In this document: positions 4,730-19,884 of the stretch, piece after piece
How the letters are laid out: every line of letters begins with the position of its first letter
Position numbering within the stretch: position 1 is the first letter of the stretch
Source: a virus
DNA: 21,565 nucleotides
Direction: 5' to 3' (one strand)
Virus genome (UHGV): UHGV-0142951
The notes under the pieces: generated by a model
The model's input: the letters and a program-made list of their open reading frames with translations, nothing else
Told to the model about the DNA's origin: nothing
Database searches by the model: none
Made by a program: the position numbers and the translations under genes

Positions 4730-6928
4730 ATGGCAGAAAAAAAGATGACTGACTGGCATCGCAAGGTGCTGTGCAACTTTGATAATGCCTGGTCAGCAAC
4801 GCAGGATATGCGTGAGCAGATTATTGAGGCTCAACGTTTCGTCCGGGTGTCCGGCGCACAGTGGGAAGGCAGCACAAACGCTGGTTACTCATTTGATGAA
4901 GGCAGGTTTGAGCATTACCCGCGCTTTGAACTGAATAAGATTGCCCGTGAATGTGATCGCATCATTGGCGAGTATCGACAGAATCGCATCAGCGTTAAAT
5001 TCAGGCCGAAGGATGACAAGGCATCGGAAGCGTTAGCCGAAAAGATGAACGGCAAATTCCGCGCTGATTATCAGGAAACATCCGGTGGCGAAGCGTGTGA
5101 TAACGCATTTGATGATGCTGTAACGGGCGGATTCGGTTGTTTCCGCATGTGTGCTGATTACGAAGATGAAATGGATCCGAGTAACGAGCAACGCCGTATA
5201 AGCCTTCTCCCTGTTTACGACCCAGCGACATGCGTCTTCTTTGATCAGGACAGCAAGCAATATGACCGCTCTGATGCTATGTGGGCTATGGAAATGTTCT
5301 CCATGACGCCTAAAGCGTTCGAGGCTGAATACCCTGATTCCATCGCGGCAAGCCTTTCTCGTGATGACACTGGTACTCAATATGACTGGTCAACTCCTGA
5401 TGCTATCTATGTTGGTCGCTACTACGAAGTTCGCGTAGAGAAGGTGAAGCTCACAGCATGGCGTAACCCTGTTAGCGGAGAAACGGCAATCTATGATGAA
5501 GATCAAATCAAAGATATTGTCGACGAGCTGACCGATGGCGCATTCGAACTGATTGGTGAGCGGACAGTGAAGAAACGCCGAGTTTATTGCGGTCTTCTGT
5601 CTGGCGCTGAATGGCTGGAAGAACCGAAGCGTATTCCGGGCGAACATATTCCTCTCATCCCGGTATATGGGCGTCGTTCATTTGTTGATAATCAGGAGCG
5701 AATCGAAGGCCACGCTGCAAAAGCGATGGATGCACAGCGTCTTGAGAACCTGATGGTTTCCATGATTGCAGATAACGCTACTCAGGCTGGCGGTGATGGC
5801 ATTCCTATCGTGGATGTTGATTTCATTCCCGGTCCATTAATGAATCACTGGGCAGAGAGGAATAAGAAAAGACCTGCAGTTCTTCCCATGACCAGCAAGA
5901 AGGACAAAAACGGAACGGTCATTTCAGAGGCTCAGGTTGCTGGCTGGACACCTCCGACACAAATGCCTCCAGCTCTTGCCGGGCTATTGCAGTACACCGG
6001 AACGGCTATTCAGCAAATTACAGGTGCGTCGCAGCTTGAGAACATGCCGAGCAACGTCGCTACCGATACCGTTGATAGCATCTTTAACCGGATGGACACG
6101 CAGTCCTATATCTACATGGACAACATGGCTAAATCCATGCGCCGTGCTGGCGTCGTGTGGCTTTCTATGGCTCGTGAAGTCTATGGCAGCGATACGCCAA
6201 TGCGCATCGTTAATGAGGATGACAGCGATGACGTGGCGCTGATGACTGGTGAAGTGGTTGACCGTCAGACAGGGCAGGTTATCGCGCTTAACGACCTTTC
6301 GCAGGGTAACTATGAAGTGACTGTCGATGTCGGTCAGTCGTTCGCTACTCGCCGTGATGCAACGGTTAAGTCGTTACTTTCCATGCTGGCACTTATCCCG
6401 CCAGGAACGCCGAAGCATGACCTTGTATCGTCGATGATTCTCGACAATATGGACGGCGAAGGGATGGACGACCTGAAAGAATACAACCGCAATCAGTTGC
6501 TTCTGTCTGGCGTTATCAAGCCGAGAACGCCTGAAGAACAGCAAATGGTTGAGCAGGCGAAACAACAACAGGCCAGTCAGCCAGATCCGGCTATGGTTGC
6601 AGCGCAAGGTCAGCTTCTTGCAGGTCAGGCTGAATTGCAGAAAGCGCAGAACGAACAGGCAGCCATTCAGGTTAAAGCATTCCAGGCACAGACTGATGCT
6701 CAGGTTGCAGCGGCAAACGTTGTGAAAATCCTCGCATCTGCCGATAGCCAGCAGAAATCTGATATCCGCGAGGCTCTGAAACTGCTCGGACAGTTCCAGC
6801 AACAGCAAGGAGACAATGCCCGTGCTGATGCAGAGCTTGTCCTGAAAAGTCAGGCACAGGGTCATGCGCAGCGCATGGACATCAGCAGCATCCTGCAAAA
6901 ATCAACTCAGCAACAACCACAGCAGTAA
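4730..6928 (+). CDS. Portal protein (P22 gp1-like) with C-terminal Gln-rich helical barrel
   Basis: ORF track 4730..6928, 732 aa. Position immediately after terL; length close to P22 portal (about 725 aa); long Q/A-rich helical C-terminus as in the P22 portal barrel. Confidence 0.9.
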   Translation: MAEKKMTDWHRKVLCNFDNAWSATQDMREQIIEAQRFVRVSGAQWEGSTNAGYSFDEGRFEHYPRFELNKIARECDRIIGEYRQNRISVKFRPKDDKASEALAEKMNGKFRADYQETSGGEACDNAFDDAVTGGFGCFRMCADYEDEMDPSNEQRRISLLPVYDPATCVFFDQDSKQYDRSDAMWAMEMFSMTPKAFEAEYPDSIAASLSRDDTGTQYDWSTPDAIYVGRYYEVRVEKVKLTAWRNPVSGETAIYDEDQIKDIVDELTDGAFELIGERTVKKRRVYCGLLSGAEWLEEPKRIPGEHIPLIPVYGRRSFVDNQERIEGHAAKAMDAQRLENLMVSMIADNATQAGGDGIPIVDVDFIPGPLMNHWAERNKKRPAVLPMTSKKDKNGTVISEAQVAGWTPPTQMPPALAGLLQYTGTAIQQITGASQLENMPSNVATDTVDSIFNRMDTQSYIYMDNMAKSMRRAGVVWLSMAREVYGSDTPMRIVNEDDSDDVALMTGEVVDRQTGQVIALNDLSQGNYEVTVDVGQSFATRRDATVKSLLSMLALIPPGTPKHDLVSSMILDNMDGEGMDDLKEYNRNQLLLSGVIKPRTPEEQQMVEQAKQQQASQPDPAMVAAQGQLLAGQAELQKAQNEQAAIQVKAFQAQTDAQVAAANVVKILASADSQQKSDIREALKLLGQFQQQQGDNARADAELVLKSQAQGHAQRMDISSILQKSTQQQPQQ

Positions 6929-17037: not shown

Positions 17038-17523
17038 TTATCTAATGTTGCTGCTACTGTTGCATGTGACGGTGTTTCCAAATCCTGAATTGCAGTTTGT
17101 ATATGTGTCAACGCGTGTTGGGTAAGGTTGAGTTATAACAGGCTGGCGCGCTTTTTGCTCGATCGCTTGCATTGTGTTTACAGCCTGATAATTCAATAAA
17201 GCCTGCTGGAATGCTTGGCTTTGCGCTATTTGTTGGGCTTGTTCTTGGCTTTGTAATTGAACATAAAGATTCTGAAGTTCAAGTCTTGCCTGTGTGTCAC
17301 TTATCTTGCCTTCATCGACACCTTGCCCGAGCATCTTCGCAGCAAGGACATACAGCTTAGGTGTTGGTGCTGATGCCATGCGAGAGTCGTTCTTCAAGCT
17401 GGCATCAAGGCAATTAGCCATATCGCTAAGCTTTGGATAGCGTTGCTCGCAACTTGCCTGATAGTCGCTTACTTTTGCGCACCCAGCCAGCAGAAGCGGG
17501 ATAATTAACAGTGATTTTTTCAT
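17038..17523 (-). CDS. Predicted lipoprotein of unknown function, 161 aa (accessory gene)
   Basis: Internal ATG (17521-17523) of track ORF 17038..17574 with AAGGAGAG upstream. Signal peptide MKKSLLIIPLLLAGC with lipobox LLAGC; Gln-rich helical middle; Cys-containing C-terminus. Lower GC than the structural genes (by eye). Confidence 0.7.
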   Translation of the reverse strand: MKKSLLIIPLLLAGCAKVSDYQASCEQRYPKLSDMANCLDASLKNDSRMASAPTPKLYVLAAKMLGQGVDEGKISDTQARLELQNLYVQLQSQEQAQQIAQSQAFQQALLNYQAVNTMQAIEQKARQPVITQPYPTRVDTYTNCNSGFGNTVTCNSSSNIR

Positions 17524-17557
17524 ATAATTAACTCTCCTTAGTTTTGCGCAGGATACC

Positions 17558-17923
17558 ATGAAAAAAGTTAACATTGGAAATGTACCAAAGATGCTAGTAC
17601 CGCTCTTTGAGAGCGGTACAATTGTGTTTTGTAGAGACTTTCCAGAATGGCAACGCCTGCATCAAAAACTTGGCGTTGACGTGCATGACTCGGACGCCAA
17701 CGGAGCGTCTCATACAATGAGTAGCGAGAATGGTGTTTTGCATGTGATAGGCGTGTTCAATGGCAAACTATCTACTATTGCCCATGAGTGCGCTCACATG
17801 GCATTCGATATCTGCTCAAGGGTAGGTGTTGATGTTGAACCAGGAAGAGCCAACGAGACTTACTGCTACTTAATGAGCAGGCTTGTTGAGTTCTGCGAGC
17901 GACATATCAAAAAGCCGGAGTGA
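17558..17923 (+). CDS. Small HExxH zinc-metallopeptidase-like protein, 121 aa (possibly ImmA/IrrE-like)
   Basis: ORF track 17558..17923. Motif STIAHECAHMAF (His76-Glu77-x-x-His80) with candidate third ligand in VEPGRANETY (Glu94/Glu100); the context resembles the recalled ImmA/IrrE signature (..LAHELGH.. / ..E.EAN..). Divergent from the lipoprotein gene, start codons 34 bp apart. Confidence 0.55.
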   Translation: MKKVNIGNVPKMLVPLFESGTIVFCRDFPEWQRLHQKLGVDVHDSDANGASHTMSSENGVLHVIGVFNGKLSTIAHECAHMAFDICSRVGVDVEPGRANETYCYLMSRLVEFCERHIKKPE

Positions 17924-18206: not shown

Positions 18207-18231
18207 AACCCACCGTCAGGTGGGTTTTTTT
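18207..18231 (+). terminator. Rho-independent terminator (strong on the + strand, A/T-flanked on both sides)
   Basis: Perfect 8-bp stem AACCCACC (18207-18214) / GGTGGGTT (18219-18226), loop GTCA, then a T7 run (18225-18231). Confidence 0.7.
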
Positions 18232-18263: not shown

Positions 18264-18449
18264 ATGACCATAGAAGAACGTCTGAACAACATTGAGTTGA
18301 ATCAAACCCTGCTTGACCAGCGACTTTCAGATCTTGAGCTTAAAGATCTAGATGTGCAAATATCAGAAGCAGAAGCCAAGCTCTCCAGCTTAAACCACCG
18401 CAGGAAGCAAATCCGCGACAGAATTACTCGTGGACGCGGAGGCTGTTAA
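18264..18449 (+). CDS. Small coiled-coil protein with basic C-terminus, 61 aa, hypothetical
   Basis: ORF track 18264..18449. AAGGA RBS 7 nt upstream. Heptad-like Leu/Ile pattern (IEERLNNIELNQTLLDQRLSDLELKDLDV) then RRKQIRDRITRGRGGC. Confidence 0.45.
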   Translation: MTIEERLNNIELNQTLLDQRLSDLELKDLDVQISEAEAKLSSLNHRRKQIRDRITRGRGGC

Positions 18450-18526: not shown

Positions 18527-19063
18527 TCAAACAACCCACCAGTTTGCCTGATTGGATACCAGCCTTGCAGTTTTTATGGAATTAATTATGCCATGCTCAA
18601 GAGCCTTGTTAGCATCCAAAATGGTCGAGTCTGCTATCAGGGATGCCCACCTAATATGGGTTCCGATGTCGATATTGAACGTCTCAACGAAGCGATCAAG
18701 ATCGTTATCGAGGCATTTCCCGTACTCTCTCAATCTGGCATGGTCGGCGGCTGGGGAGGCAAAGCACCATAATAGAGGATGTAACAGGAATCTTGATAAT
18801 GGGTTTGCGAAACGTTCTGAGCCAGCCAGGAAAACGATATTAGCTATGGATTCAACATTGCTTATGTTGTGAGTTCTAACGGTAACAGGGAGTGACTTAA
18901 GAAAGTTATACGCAGTAAAGCCAGCGGCAGTTTCCCCTCCCTGACTTGATATATGGATATTTAATTCAGTTGCGCCTTGAGATAATGCGGTGAGACAGTG
19001 GTTCTGAAGTTGCCCAACAGTGGCAGTGTTAACGGGGCATAAGAAATGAATTGTGTGCAGCAT
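18527..19063 (-). CDS. ClpP-fold (S14-like) serine peptidase, 178 aa, translationally coupled to the upstream Mnt-like gene
   Basis: ORF track 18527..19063. Hand alignment to recalled E. coli ClpP: ISSQGGETAAG vs INSPGGVITAG; Ser72 (VESIA) aligns with the ClpP catalytic Ser (GQAASMG); RFANPLSRFLLHP vs RFCLPNSRVMIHQP places His95 at the catalytic His; C-terminal ALEHGIINSI vs AVEYGLVDSI with Asp145/Asp150 nearby. Start ATG overlaps the upstream stop by 1 nt (TAATG). AAGGA RBS lies inside the upstream gene. Confidence 0.65.
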   Translation of the reverse strand: MLHTIHFLCPVNTATVGQLQNHCLTALSQGATELNIHISSQGGETAAGFTAYNFLKSLPVTVRTHNISNVESIANIVFLAGSERFANPLSRFLLHPLLWCFASPAADHARLREYGKCLDNDLDRFVETFNIDIGTHIRWASLIADSTILDANKALEHGIINSIKTARLVSNQANWWVV

Positions 19064-19314
19064 TATTTTTCATCCTTAGCATACATGGTCTTTAGCGTCT
19101 CAACATCGTGTTCAAGATCTATCAATCGTGATGCTATAGTTGCAAGGTCTAGTGCTTGAATGTGTTTATTTTTTTCTGTCCACGCTTCAAGTGCCGCGAC
19201 CATCTCAGCATTTAATGAACGAGAATTAGCCTCAGCCAGTTCAATAAGACGTTCCTTTATCTCTACAGGAAGCCTCAGATTCACTTGAGGGTTTTTGTAC
19301 TTACGATCAGACAT
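19063..19314 (-). CDS. mnt: Mnt-like ribbon-helix-helix repressor, 83 aa
   Basis: Track ORF 19063..19320 begins at a GTG; preferred ATG 19312-19314 with AGGA 7 nt upstream. NPQVNLRLPVEIKERLIELAEANSRSLNAEMV resembles recalled P22 Mnt (DPHFNFRMPMEVREKLKFRAEANGRSMNSELL). C-terminal helix ...VETLKTMYAKDEK. Confidence 0.7.
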   Translation of the reverse strand: MSDRKYKNPQVNLRLPVEIKERLIELAEANSRSLNAEMVAALEAWTEKNKHIQALDLATIASRLIDLEHDVETLKTMYAKDEK

Positions 19315-19331
19315 CGGCACATCCTGAATAA

Positions 19332-19571
19332 TTATTTACCATACATGGTCTTTAGCGTCTCAAGTAGCGCCTCTTTGAATTTATCAGCTTCTTGGTTAGC
19401 GAATCCTTCAAGTGAGCGAGAGCCATCAAGATTATCAACATGTTTTTGAAGGATAAGCACGATCTCTGAGTTCATTGATCTGCCGTTTTTATCCGCTTCT
19501 TGCTGAATGCGTTTCTTTAAATAGTCTGGAATCCTAATCCCCAATGGACTGATATCTCTTGCACCTTTCAT
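19332..19571 (-). CDS. Second RHH repressor paralog, 79 aa (Arc-like N-terminus MKG..., Mnt-like C-terminal extension)
   Basis: Internal ATG (19569-19571) of track ORF 19332..19613 with GGAGGAGAA directly upstream. ISPLGIRIPDYLKKRIQQEADKNGRSMNSEIV is an RHH fold; C-terminus ...LLETLKTMYGK. Occupies the mnt position beside the divergent promoter region. Confidence 0.7.
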   Translation of the reverse strand: MKGARDISPLGIRIPDYLKKRIQQEADKNGRSMNSEIVLILQKHVDNLDGSRSLEGFANQEADKFKEALLETLKTMYGK

Positions 19572-19596
19572 TTCTCCTCCTGCACGCTGTGCATAG

Positions 19597-19666
19597 CTAC
19601 ACAGTGTAGGCAAAAAAATTTTGACTTTAAATAAACACGGTGTAGTATTTAGTTATCACGGTGTAG
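19597..19666. promoter_or_regulatory. Candidate operator cluster in the divergent mnt/arc control region
   Basis: Near-perfect palindrome CTACACAGTGTAG (19597-19609) plus two direct copies of CACGGTGTAG (19636-19645 and 19657-19666) spaced 21 bp apart. Four TGTAG/CTACA half-sites within about 70 bp between divergent RHH genes. Confidence 0.45.
19621..19648 (+). promoter_or_regulatory. Candidate Pant-like sigma70 promoter driving the arc-like and ant genes
   Basis: TTGACT (19621-19626), 16-nt spacer, TAGTAT (19643-19648). Overlapped by the CACGGTGTAG repeats. About 30 nt upstream of the arc-like RBS AAGGGGA. Confidence 0.4.
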
Positions 19667-19679
19667 CAAGCAAGGGGAA

Positions 19680-19820
19680 ATGAAAGTTAGAGACATCGCT
19701 CCATTAGGGATTCGTATCCCGCCAGAGATTAAAGAAAAATTGAAGGAAAAGGCTAAGGAGGAGGGCAGGTCTTTAAATTCAGAAATAGTGCAGCGTCTTA
19801 TTCGCAGCCTAAAAAGTTGA
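19680..19820 (+). CDS. arc: Arc-like ribbon-helix-helix repressor, 46 aa (below the ORF-track size cutoff)
   Basis: ATG 19680 with AAGGGGA upstream; stop TGA 19818-19820. My translation: MKVRDIAPLGIRIPPEIKEKLKEKAKEEGRSLNSEIVQRLIRSLKS, an RHH fold (beta strand then ..GRSLNSEI.. helix) as in recalled P22 Arc. Position immediately upstream of ant as in P22 immI. Confidence 0.7.
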   Translation: MKVRDIAPLGIRIPPEIKEKLKEKAKEEGRSLNSEIVQRLIRSLKS

Positions 19821-19884
19821 AGCCCCAACTGCGGGAACAGTCAGGGCTTCGGTATCGTAAAACCACGCATAGGAATTAACGACA
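19811..19884 (-). ncRNA. Candidate sar-like antisense RNA covering the ant ribosome-binding site
   Basis: Minus-strand promoter-like TTGATT (plus 19913-19918), 17 nt, TACACT (plus 19890-19895) inside the first ant codons. Minus-strand hairpin (7-bp stem 19819-19825 / 19844-19850 with inner 4-bp stem) followed by AAC then a U5 run (plus A-run 19811-19815). Predicted RNA of about 70 nt, complementary to the ant SD and start, analogous to P22 sar. Confidence 0.3.

Follow-up and report, generated by a model that had tools for sequence, protein, structure and literature searches.

The immI locus and its three Arc-family genes

The 21,565-nucleotide (nt) stretch of viral DNA analyzed here, UHGV virus genome UHGV-0142951 (hereafter the window), carries at its 3′ end a P22-type immunity I (immI) region, the “ant moron”, of a P22-like E. 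coli phage, with a leftward mnt operon divergent from arc-sar-ant. We focus on its three ribbon-helix-helix (RHH) proteins, Arc46, Mnt79 and RHH83, and on the DNA-reading strand that the first two have in common. Three Pfam Arc proteins, sar and ant, together with a P22-like virion module upstream and a tailspike gene downstream, fix the locus as immI (Table 1). The upstream genes (terminase, portal, coat and ejection proteins) are ~92–93% identical to those of Sf101, CUS-3 and phiv205-1, and the start of the tailspike gene is seen downstream of the immI region. The mnt and arc-ant units are divergent, the latter encoding a P22-type antirepressor, and sar lies opposite the arc-ant junction, near a terminator-like hairpin at 19850-19819. 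The three open reading frames (ORFs) lie where an earlier note, made from this DNA alone, had placed three RHH paralogs of an immunity locus, and all exceed the gathering score of Pfam Arc (PF03869, 20.4), with 49.1 bits for Arc46, 32.9 bits for Mnt79 and 40.2 bits for RHH83. RHH83 starts 17 nt past the mnt79 stop codon, and the start of a ClpP-like gene overlaps the RHH83 stop by 1 nt (TAATG).

Table 1. Coordinates of genes and sequence elements of the immI region in the window
Feature	Position	Strand	Description
ClpP-like gene, 178 aa	18527..19063	-	last gene of leftward mnt operon
RHH83, 83-aa Arc-family gene	19063..19314	-	type-B Mnt, strand QVNLRLP, helical Mnt-like C-terminus
Direct repeat copy 1, 28 nt	19076..19103		RHH83 3′ end; encodes shared C-terminus ETLKTMY[A/G]K
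Mnt79, 79-aa resident (cognate) Mnt, arm + strand ARDISPLGIRIP	19332..19571	-	Pfam Arc
Recombination junction, microhomology TTTACCA	19335..19341		left: type-B mnt leader; right: type-A mnt 3′ end
Direct repeat copy 2, 28 nt	19336..19363		mnt79 3′ end
Operator site 1 (putative), CTACAC-A-GTGTAG, perfect 13-bp palindrome	19597..19609		upstream of Pant -35
Pant-like promoter, TTGACT, 16 nt, TAGTAT	19621..19648	+	consensus scan, 9/12 matches
Operator site 2 (putative), ACAC-G-GTGTAG	19635..19645		overlaps Pant spacer and -10; centre 36 bp from site 1
Operator site 3 (putative), CAC-G-GTGTAG	19657..19666		~+1 of Pant; centre 21 bp from site 2
Arc46, 46 aa, first gene of rightward arc-ant operon, arm + strand VRDIAPLGIRIP	19680..19820	+	Pfam Arc
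sar antisense RNA	19815..19882	-	Rfam RF00262, 84.6 bits vs gathering score 43, E 1.8e-17, full length
ant antirepressor, 307 aa	19884..20807	+	Pfam P22_AR_N 136 bits, P22_AR_C 96 bits

Arc46 and Mnt79 share an arm and a DNA-reading strand

The N-terminal sequences of the three proteins are MKVRDIAPLGIRIPPEIK (Arc46), MKGARDISPLGIRIPDYLK (Mnt79) and MSDRKYKNPQVNLRLPVEIK (RHH83). Arc46 and Mnt79 are identical at all seven positions of the segment PLGIRIP, at 10 of the 11 positions of arm plus strand and at 11 of 26 positions in the two helices. Both follow the arm-and-strand pattern R-D-I-x-P-x-G-x-R-x-P, which defines what we call type A; in four other Arc/Mnt pairs (P22 type, types B and C, and locus L055, all described below), arm and strand agree at 3–7 of 9–11 positions. 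A phmmer alignment with solved structures places PLGIRIP on the β-strand, i.e., on Gln9–Pro15 of Arc (1BAZ/1ARR) and His6–Pro12 of Mnt (1MNT), so the objection that the segment falls outside the DNA-contacting strand fails. The earlier note had called the two segments essentially identical and had taken them for the part that reads DNA; its sequences are correct, and the alignment bears out both statements.

Residues 4–74 of Mnt79 align with residues 1–75 of the 76-residue 1MNT chain. The AlphaFold2 monomer of Mnt79 (mean predicted local distance difference test score, pLDDT, 81.7) is extended over residues 1–15 and helical over residues 16–29, 33–51 and 54–77; no extended (E) state is assigned in it, as the partner strand of the intermolecular ribbon is absent from a monomer. 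In this model the C-terminal helix 54–77 matches the tetramerization region of P22 Mnt and is a putative tetramer module, whereas Arc46 ends after helix B, without a Mnt-type C-terminal helix. Mnt79 is three residues shorter than its relatives, which end in YGKDEK, and its R5, I7, P9 and R13 are kept in Enterobacterales homologs. The base-facing residues defined by work of the Sauer laboratory are Q9, N11 and R13 in Arc and H6, N8 and R10, plus R2, in Mnt. At the three base-facing strand positions Arc46 and Mnt79 have Pro, Gly and Arg, and their arm Arg aligns with Mnt Arg2; classical base contacts by a type-A ribbon would appear possible only from the strand Arg and the arm Arg.

A single putative operator motif between arc46 and mnt79

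Between the two genes lie 108 bp, in which CAC-N-GTGTAG occurs three times and a second type of operator is absent. When one mismatch is tolerated, the window has five matches to CACRGTGTAG, four of them within 19597-19666, and none of 100 shuffled sequences reaches that number. Site 1 is invariant at 13 of 13 positions in six diverged intergenic regions, and its 9-bp core CACAGTGTA stands at the same position in four more. Also invariant in the six-sequence alignment is the TTGACTT of the promoter Pant, whose position is equivalent to that of P22 Pant in P22-type loci; it is this placement of Pant that sets the three sites relative to its -35, -10 and +1 positions (Table 1). No second conserved palindrome that could be a distinct operator is found in the same alignment. 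The CACGGTG core of site 3 equals the center of the P22 Omnt sequence in P22-type loci, and the CAC/GTG core of type-A sites recalls the heptad (A/T)ATCAC(A/T) of the omega repressor.

Strand and operator co-vary across immI loci

We sorted 80 ant-containing viral contigs into immI allele classes by their Arc and Mnt strands; the divergent layout is common to the surveyed loci in which an arc was detected. The Mnt and Arc strands are HFNFRMP and QFNLRWP, respectively, in the P22 type, QVNLRLP and KTLRMP in type B, and SPTTVRIP and KILVRMP in type C; in Stx-phage types a Mnt strand is present, and the search pattern used found no Arc. Type A, with PLGIRIP in both proteins, is set apart from the other classes by its identical Mnt and Arc strands. 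The P22-, B- and C-type alleles, with their other Arc/Mnt strands, lack the CAC-N-GTGTAG motif, and P22-type loci have two different operators, ATGATAGAAGCACTCTACTAT and GGTCCACGGTGGACC, at the Pant-proximal positions.

Homologs of Mnt79 (61–82% identity) were traced to eight loci, in Tatumella, Pluralibacter, Salmonella, Serratia and four metagenome contigs. Mnt has P-x-G-x-R at seven of the eight, and at each of these seven the partner Arc has it too. All seven loci keep the 36-bp distance from the site-1 core to site 2, and five keep site 3 at a further 21 bp, this site being degenerate in Serratia and lost in metagenome contig L127. At the eighth locus (L128), P-x-S-x-R in Mnt is paired with K-x-L-x-R in Arc, and the site-1 position is taken by TGATATCA, a palindrome seen there in type C as well. 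A two-site pattern scan of IMG/VR recovered 13 immI loci. In a diverged phage, L091, Mnt is MRGMRNIGPTGVRIP (..NIGPTGVRIP) and Arc is MEKIREIPPTGVRLP (..EIPPTGVRLP), and the same three sites stand between unrelated flanks; more generally, the operator sites are kept while the intergenic flanks diverge between lineages. On the protein side, only the base-facing P, G and R and the arm R-[DNE]-I are conserved, and the core-facing positions (L/M/Y/T/V and I/V/L) drift independently. Conservation confined in this way to base-facing and arm residues is what selection on DNA contacts, and not copying, would leave behind. With the window and L091 included, protein and operator co-vary, at the level of sequence, across ten lineages.

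The RHH ribbon is the principal specificity determinant of these proteins (PMC3413123), and the same paper, citing Knight & Sauer 1989, describes a swap of N-terminal residues between Arc and Mnt that alters binding specificity. Together, the co-variation and the role of the ribbon make shared operator recognition the best-supported reading, i.e., Arc46 and Mnt79 very probably read the same DNA element. The earlier note had predicted that the Arc-like protein and its divergent neighbor read the same half-site, a prediction now favored by three copies of one motif, by the lack of a second operator type and by the joint conservation of strand and motif. The feature by which immI is usually described, Arc and Mnt recognizing two different operators via different N-terminal residues, is not found here as far as sequence can tell.

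Several loci of other classes show related arrangements. In L055 (IMGVR_UViG_2731957948_000005), Mnt (..DPQFNVRMP) and Arc (..MPQFNLRWP) both have Q-N-R, a second kind of pair with shared base-facing residues, and the intergenic region (~2015-2109) repeats GTAGTAGTACG at both Pant-proximal operator positions. Type-B variants (L042, L045, L063, L075 and L081) keep the Arc N-terminus MKVKTLRMPE and the intergenic region, with strongly diverged helices (..WLEKALEQSAKKDDRSFSNEVL..), which again points to joint conservation of strand and operators on a scaffold that drifts or is swapped. Type C (L003/L006) has the central GCAAAAAAATTTTGACT in common with type A, and L003/L006 and L128 have a different palindrome, TTTGATATCAAAG, at the type-A site-1 position; this comparison suggests a conserved promoter chassis with exchangeable operator cassettes. 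A scan of a one-genome-per-species contig set for CACGGTGTAG-N11-CACGGTGTAG gave 24 matches, none with an RHH gene nearby and with a local G+C of 0.33–0.74 (most 0.57 or above). Given this G+C-rich context and the lack of RHH neighbors, we discarded the matches as chance; type-A prophages are apparently absent from that set.

Origin of RHH83 and the stacking of Mnt genes

The QVNLRLP strand of RHH83 aligns with QFNLRWP of Arc and with 1MNT, on Arc 9–15 and Mnt 6–12; up to the Trp, it does not differ from the strand that the Arc FV10 variant has in 1BAZ. E. coli MBT-5 has a type-B locus whose only Mnt matches RHH83 at every residue; that locus carries an Arc of its own (MKVKTLRMP) and an intergenic region unlike that of the window. 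The earlier note had seen in this third paralog a Mnt-like protein with the P22 Arc pattern and a different specificity; a type-B Mnt strand agrees with that prediction. In the alignment with MBT-5, the window follows type B over the ClpP-like gene, RHH83 and the RHH83 leader as far as AATAATTATTTACCA, and from there on switches to a type-A mnt 3′ end. The RHH83 block is flanked by a 28-nt direct repeat (96% identity, 260-nt spacing); in 16 complete E. coli genomes, where 83% of the query is covered, ~260 bp of the locus are missing and the rest matches. In the form seen in PhiR12_1, the ClpP-like gene directly follows a PLGIRIP Mnt ending in ..YGKDEK; in a Salmonella prophage, too, it comes directly after a PLGIRIP Mnt. 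A single crossover at the 7-nt microhomology TTTACCA explains both the capture of RHH83 and the loss of three residues from Mnt79. Judged from these alignments, RHH83 is a type-B Mnt captured by such a crossover and is foreign to the ancestral type-A locus.

A consensus scan of the 17-nt mnt79-RHH83 gap found no promoter-like site upstream of RHH83, and a search of the 21.5-kb window for ATGCGTACC and for all 12-mers of the type-B intergenic region found no type-B operator words; only the retained leader, 19315-19341, matches type-B 12-mers, the remainder being at shuffled-sequence level. With neither a promoter-like site nor a cognate operator, RHH83 is an orphan Mnt, presumably transcribed from the mnt promoter Pmnt. 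An attempt to narrow the type-B operator by conservation gave no resolution, the type-B intergenic regions being all nearly identical.

The junction of a type-A with a type-B Mnt gene (A–B) was found in one of 5,426 complete E. coli genomes, between tail genes L and K of a lambda-like siphovirus prophage, and in two IMG/VR contigs. L097 (IMGVR_UViG_2541047931_000005, ~5436-6764) has four RHH genes, Arc46 and a tandem row of type-A, type-B and P22-type Mnts that is followed by the ClpP-like gene, and its A–B junction is identical to that of the window. In CUS-3 and four IMG/VR contigs, a P22-type Mnt that keeps ~19 nt of leader stands behind a type-B Mnt, and no P22 Omnt was found in these CUS-3-type stacked loci. 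The Mnt arrays seen so far are thus A-B, B-P22 and A-B-P22. Two independent junctions (A–B and B–P22-type) each keep a short leader bearing a ribosome-binding site (RBS; ~27 nt vs ~19 nt) and have lost the incoming promoter and operators, and this like anatomy hints at selection. The searchable literature yielded neither a report of a single-specificity Arc/Mnt pair nor one that treats stacked orphan Mnts as a phenomenon. Villafane et al. 2008 (PMC2629481) described the ant moron as highly mosaic and distinguished ten types of it among sixteen genomes.

Two further loci bear on the mobility of the region. In L004 (E. coli MS 196-1) and L002 (PhiR12_1), the module of ClpP-like gene, mnt, arc and ant is a moron between lambda-like tail genes L and K; the MS 196-1 module is 99.8% identical to the window. 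Its occurrence in podovirus and siphovirus late operons shows that the module moves between the two.

The ClpP-like gene

The ClpP-like protein scores 44.4 bits against Pfam CLP_protease (cut-off 20.2) and falls far below every NCBIfam ClpP cut-off. Among solved structures, PpClpP1 of Pseudomonas plecoglossicida (PDB 9UXT) comes closest, with E 1.8e-35 over residues 3-175, and the Ser (VES) and His (LHP) of the triad align with it; the third triad position is ambiguous, the residue being not Pro, in the local sequence ADST. The protein appears to be an N-terminally short ClpP paralog. In PpClpP1 the N-terminus is truncated and activity is low; the subunit assembles with canonical ClpP into mixed tetradecamers and fails to bind ClpX (PMC12900304). 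The window protein resembles it in the short N-terminus and the aligned Ser and His, but is phage-borne and lies in a Mnt operon. PpClpP1 has been described as a chromosomal “ClpP1”; the paralog family may be of phage origin, and in a lysogen the ClpP-like protein might mix with host ClpP. “Head maturation protease” labels (PHROGs, NCBIfam) were rejected as far below cut-off and implausible at an immI location. The gene follows a type-C Mnt in phiv205-1, and in other lineages the gene after Mnt is Rap1a-like, P63C or SieA-like. Because the ClpP-like gene trails whichever Mnt is last and is replaced in other lineages, its link to RHH83 is incidental.

Proposed mechanism

Gene content, strand identity, the triplicated and conserved motif and the recombination junction are direct observations, and the explanation that best accommodates them is a type-A, single-specificity Arc/Mnt switch acting on one thrice-repeated operator, with a captured orphan type-B Mnt; we put its probability at roughly 0.65. 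According to this model, Arc46 and Mnt79 would both bind CAC-N-GTGTAG at its three copies. In a lysogen, Mnt79 expressed from Pmnt would occupy sites 2 and 3 and shut Pant; after infection, Arc46 made from the ant transcript would build up and take the same sites, limiting Ant. Site 1, which adjoins the mnt leader, may serve auto-control of mnt, or cooperative or looped binding. The two proteins would then be distinguished by timing and oligomeric state (valency), not by sequence preference, Mnt79 keeping a long C-terminal helix of the kind by which P22 Mnt tetramerizes and Arc46 lacking it. RHH83 would share a Pmnt transcript with mnt79 and the ClpP1-like gene. If it has a role, the likeliest is cross-immunity, with RHH83 shutting the antirepressor promoter of type-B phages that enter the cell or already reside in it; failing that, it would be a passenger acquired recently. 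What we infer, as opposed to observe, is that the proteins bind DNA and in what stoichiometry, that the operon is transcribed as a unit, and what RHH83 may do.

A fuller version of the model, which we offer tentatively, has a natural one-specificity switch, with a tetrameric Mnt for maintenance and a dimeric Arc for shut-off, divided by oligomeric state, site arrangement and timing, and combines it with a promoterless heterotypic Mnt as an “anti-antirepressor shield” that might silence rival Ant genes against induction in trans.

Several points weigh against the single-specificity switch with a captured Mnt. A base-reading ribbon does not usually have Pro and Gly at two of its three base-facing positions, and recognition may rest mostly on the arm and a single Arg, or partly on DNA shape. 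Each palindrome may be bound by one RHH dimer, as with MetJ, or by two, as with omega-repressor heptads, and P22 Arc and Mnt have a subsite spacing of ~11 bp, unlike the 21-bp spacing here. The type-B intergenic region repeats ATGCGTACC at both Pant-proximal positions though its Arc and Mnt strands differ, so a repeated word alone is no proof of shared specificity. No convincing leftward -35/-10 pair for Pmnt emerged from a consensus scan, from the analogy with P22, in which the Pmnt -10 overlaps the Pant -35, or from conservation in the intergenic alignment, which makes any assignment of sites to promoters provisional. The rarity of the A–B junction, finally, is accounted for equally well by a recent neutral event and by selection.

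Weighing the alternatives

That last point leads to the alternative that survives best, a distinctly possible one though we would not bet on it: RHH83 as a functionless passenger of recent illegitimate recombination, to be lost or to decay. A junction at 7-nt microhomology, found in a single complete E. coli genome and two IMG/VR contigs, and a window without an RHH83 target site are what such an event would leave. Yet the RHH83 ORF is intact and sits, behind a Shine-Dalgarno sequence of its own, in a presumably expressed operon; the RBS-bearing leader was kept, and promoter and operators were dropped, at two independent junctions; the A–B junction persists in two downstream contexts, in podovirus and siphovirus backgrounds; and the stacked specificities (B and P22) are among the commonest immI types of the 80-locus survey. 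Antirepressors are able to act in trans on the repressors of other prophages (PMC3121763), which lends a stacked Mnt a plausible selective value and makes the silencing of Ant from competing immI types a plausible role for RHH83.

It is unlikely that the shared strand is a by-product of gene conversion or recent duplication, with Arc46 and Mnt79 discriminating operators through other residues. The 5′ ends of arc and mnt are inverted repeats ~110 bp apart, a geometry that permits conversion; the shared codons are more alike in L091 than in the window; and the published Arc/Mnt swaps, as far as they are described in PMC3413123, also exchanged residues outside the ribbon. In the window, however, the codons of the 10 shared residues carry six synonymous nucleotide differences in five codons (e.g., Arg CGT vs AGG), indicating that the identity is held at the protein level and is not a recent DNA copy, and on these grounds recent arc/mnt gene conversion was rejected. 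The independent drift of core-facing residues in Arc and Mnt across ten lineages, with only base-facing and arm residues conserved, and the lack of a second conserved palindrome in the intergenic region speak against a by-product as well.

Still less probable is the suggestion of the earlier note that the 83-residue Mnt-like protein and the ClpP-like peptidase form a separate module, under its own control, within a rewired immI circuit. The differing strand of RHH83 and the 1-nt overlap with the ClpP-like start, which suggests translational coupling, fit such a module, but the ClpP-like gene is likewise coupled to a PLGIRIP Mnt in PhiR12_1 and the Salmonella prophage and to the type-C Mnt in phiv205-1, and other lineages carry the Rap1a-like, P63C or SieA-like gene in its place. 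Moreover, the 17-nt gap before RHH83 has neither a promoter-like site nor a type-B operator, 16 E. coli genomes match the locus minus the 260-bp block, and RHH83 is, by its flanking repeat and its junction, a recombinational insertion of that size. The separately regulated pair thus finds no support, and the “rewired immI circuitry” is better described as the recombinational stacking of a foreign Mnt into the Pmnt operon.

Least probable of all, and very unlikely, is a toxin-antitoxin-like or defense pair in which the RHH C-terminus binds or neutralizes the peptidase: an RHH gene overlapping its downstream gene is typical type II toxin-antitoxin anatomy, FitA-like_RHH matches weakly (29.5 bits vs 27), and Mnt alleles that differ in their N-domains have the C-terminal FAQQEADKFKEALLETLKTMYGKDEK in common, but upstream of RHH83 there is neither a promoter-like site nor an operator, the gene downstream is a ClpP paralog, PADLOC matches neither the ClpP-like protein nor the RHH proteins, the C-terminus falls on the tetramerization region of P22 Mnt when aligned, the same Mnt family precedes unrelated genes in other phages, the near-identical Mnt 3′-end DNA looks like a mosaic boundary, and PpClpP1, the closest characterized relative, is a low-activity ClpP subunit that mixes with canonical ClpP.

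Comparison with known systems

The locus resembles the P22 immI region of Sauer, Susskind and co-workers in its divergent mnt and arc-ant units, its full-length sar, its Ant with P22_AR_N and P22_AR_C domains, its position between the ejection-protein genes and the tailspike, and a Pant-like promoter with putative repressor sites over -10 and +1. It differs from P22 in having one strand and one motif in three copies, whereas the P22 type has two operators and two strands (QFNLRWP and HFNFRMP), in an extra palindrome upstream of -35, in a longer intergenic region (108 vs 90 bp), and in an orphan Mnt and a ClpP-like gene added to the mnt operon. CUS-3 (CP000711, with two annotated mnt genes) likewise has tandem Mnts, the distal one of a foreign class, with a short leader and no cognate operator in the locus, and its proximal Mnt is of the RHH83 type (QVNLRLP). 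There, however, the type-B Mnt is resident beside its own operators and the P22-type Mnt is the orphan, whereas in the window a type-B orphan stands behind a type-A resident; CUS-3 also has no ClpP-like gene at that place. The literature treats the region of CUS-3-type ant morons as mosaic, without discussing specificity (Villafane et al. 2008, PMC2629481).

The type-A pair can be seen, by analogy, as a natural counterpart of the laboratory swap constructs. The engineered hybrids of Arc and Mnt N-termini (Knight & Sauer 1989; Raumann et al. 1995; as far as PMC3413123 describes them) likewise place the same recognition segment on dimeric Arc-like scaffolds and on scaffolds with the Mnt C-terminal domain; type A differs in being natural, conserved in at least ten lineages and accompanied by matching operators, with P, G and R residues unlike those of either parent. 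Like the met-boxes of MetJ, the heptads of omega repressor and the ParG sites, type A combines one ribbon specificity with an array of short, regularly spaced direct or inverse repeats (PMC3413123). In type A, however, two proteins with different oligomerization modules would share the array, and the spacings are 36 and 21 bp instead of 7-8 bp.

Additional features and annotation

Three features lie to the left of the mnt operon. A G+C-rich hairpin at 18207-18226, with T-runs flanking it on both strands, is a bidirectional terminator-like site ~300 bp beyond the ClpP-like gene and probably terminates the leftward mnt operon; between it and the ClpP-like gene lies a convergent 61-aa ORF (18264-18449, phrog_7586). 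A 178-aa ORF at 17038-17574 (-) belongs to phrog_6067, of unknown function; its internal start gives MKKSLLIIPLLLAGCAK, a typical lipoprotein signal with lipobox. It occupies the P22 sieA position, which makes it a candidate for a prophage-expressed surface or exclusion protein.

Two annotation matters concern Arc itself. The protein identical to Arc46 in L004 (5176-5316) is named “YlcI/YnfO family protein” by the Prokaryotic Genome Annotation Pipeline (PGAP; NF041551, 33.2 bits vs 30), a match that ties YlcI and YnfO, proteins of K-12 cryptic prophages, to RHH repressors of the Arc type. CUS-3 (L001, CP000711), apparently without arc according to Villafane et al. 2008 (PMC2629481), has an Arc-like ORF of 46 aa, MKVKTLRMPEKLEKILEEKAKEECRSFSAEVIKRVLDSLKREGVMV, where arc is normally found; this ORF lies at 2823-2963, within “bsq2; boundary sequence”, is unannotated and equals the Arc annotated in E. 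coli MBT-5. Both the PGAP name and the unannotated CUS-3 Arc hide immI regions in prophage annotation.

Implications

Arc and Mnt are the textbook pair for ribbon residues that set RHH specificity, and P22 immI is explained by their two operators. If the reading given here is true, an immI circuit is able to run on one specificity, and type A would provide a clean system for the contributions of oligomerization and site geometry. Its Pro-x-Gly-x-Arg ribbon and well-defined 13-bp palindrome would add a data point for the rules of ribbon-DNA recognition. The recurrent stacking of orphan Mnts, in turn, suggests a testable form of inter-phage competition, in which a prophage silences the antirepressor of its rival.

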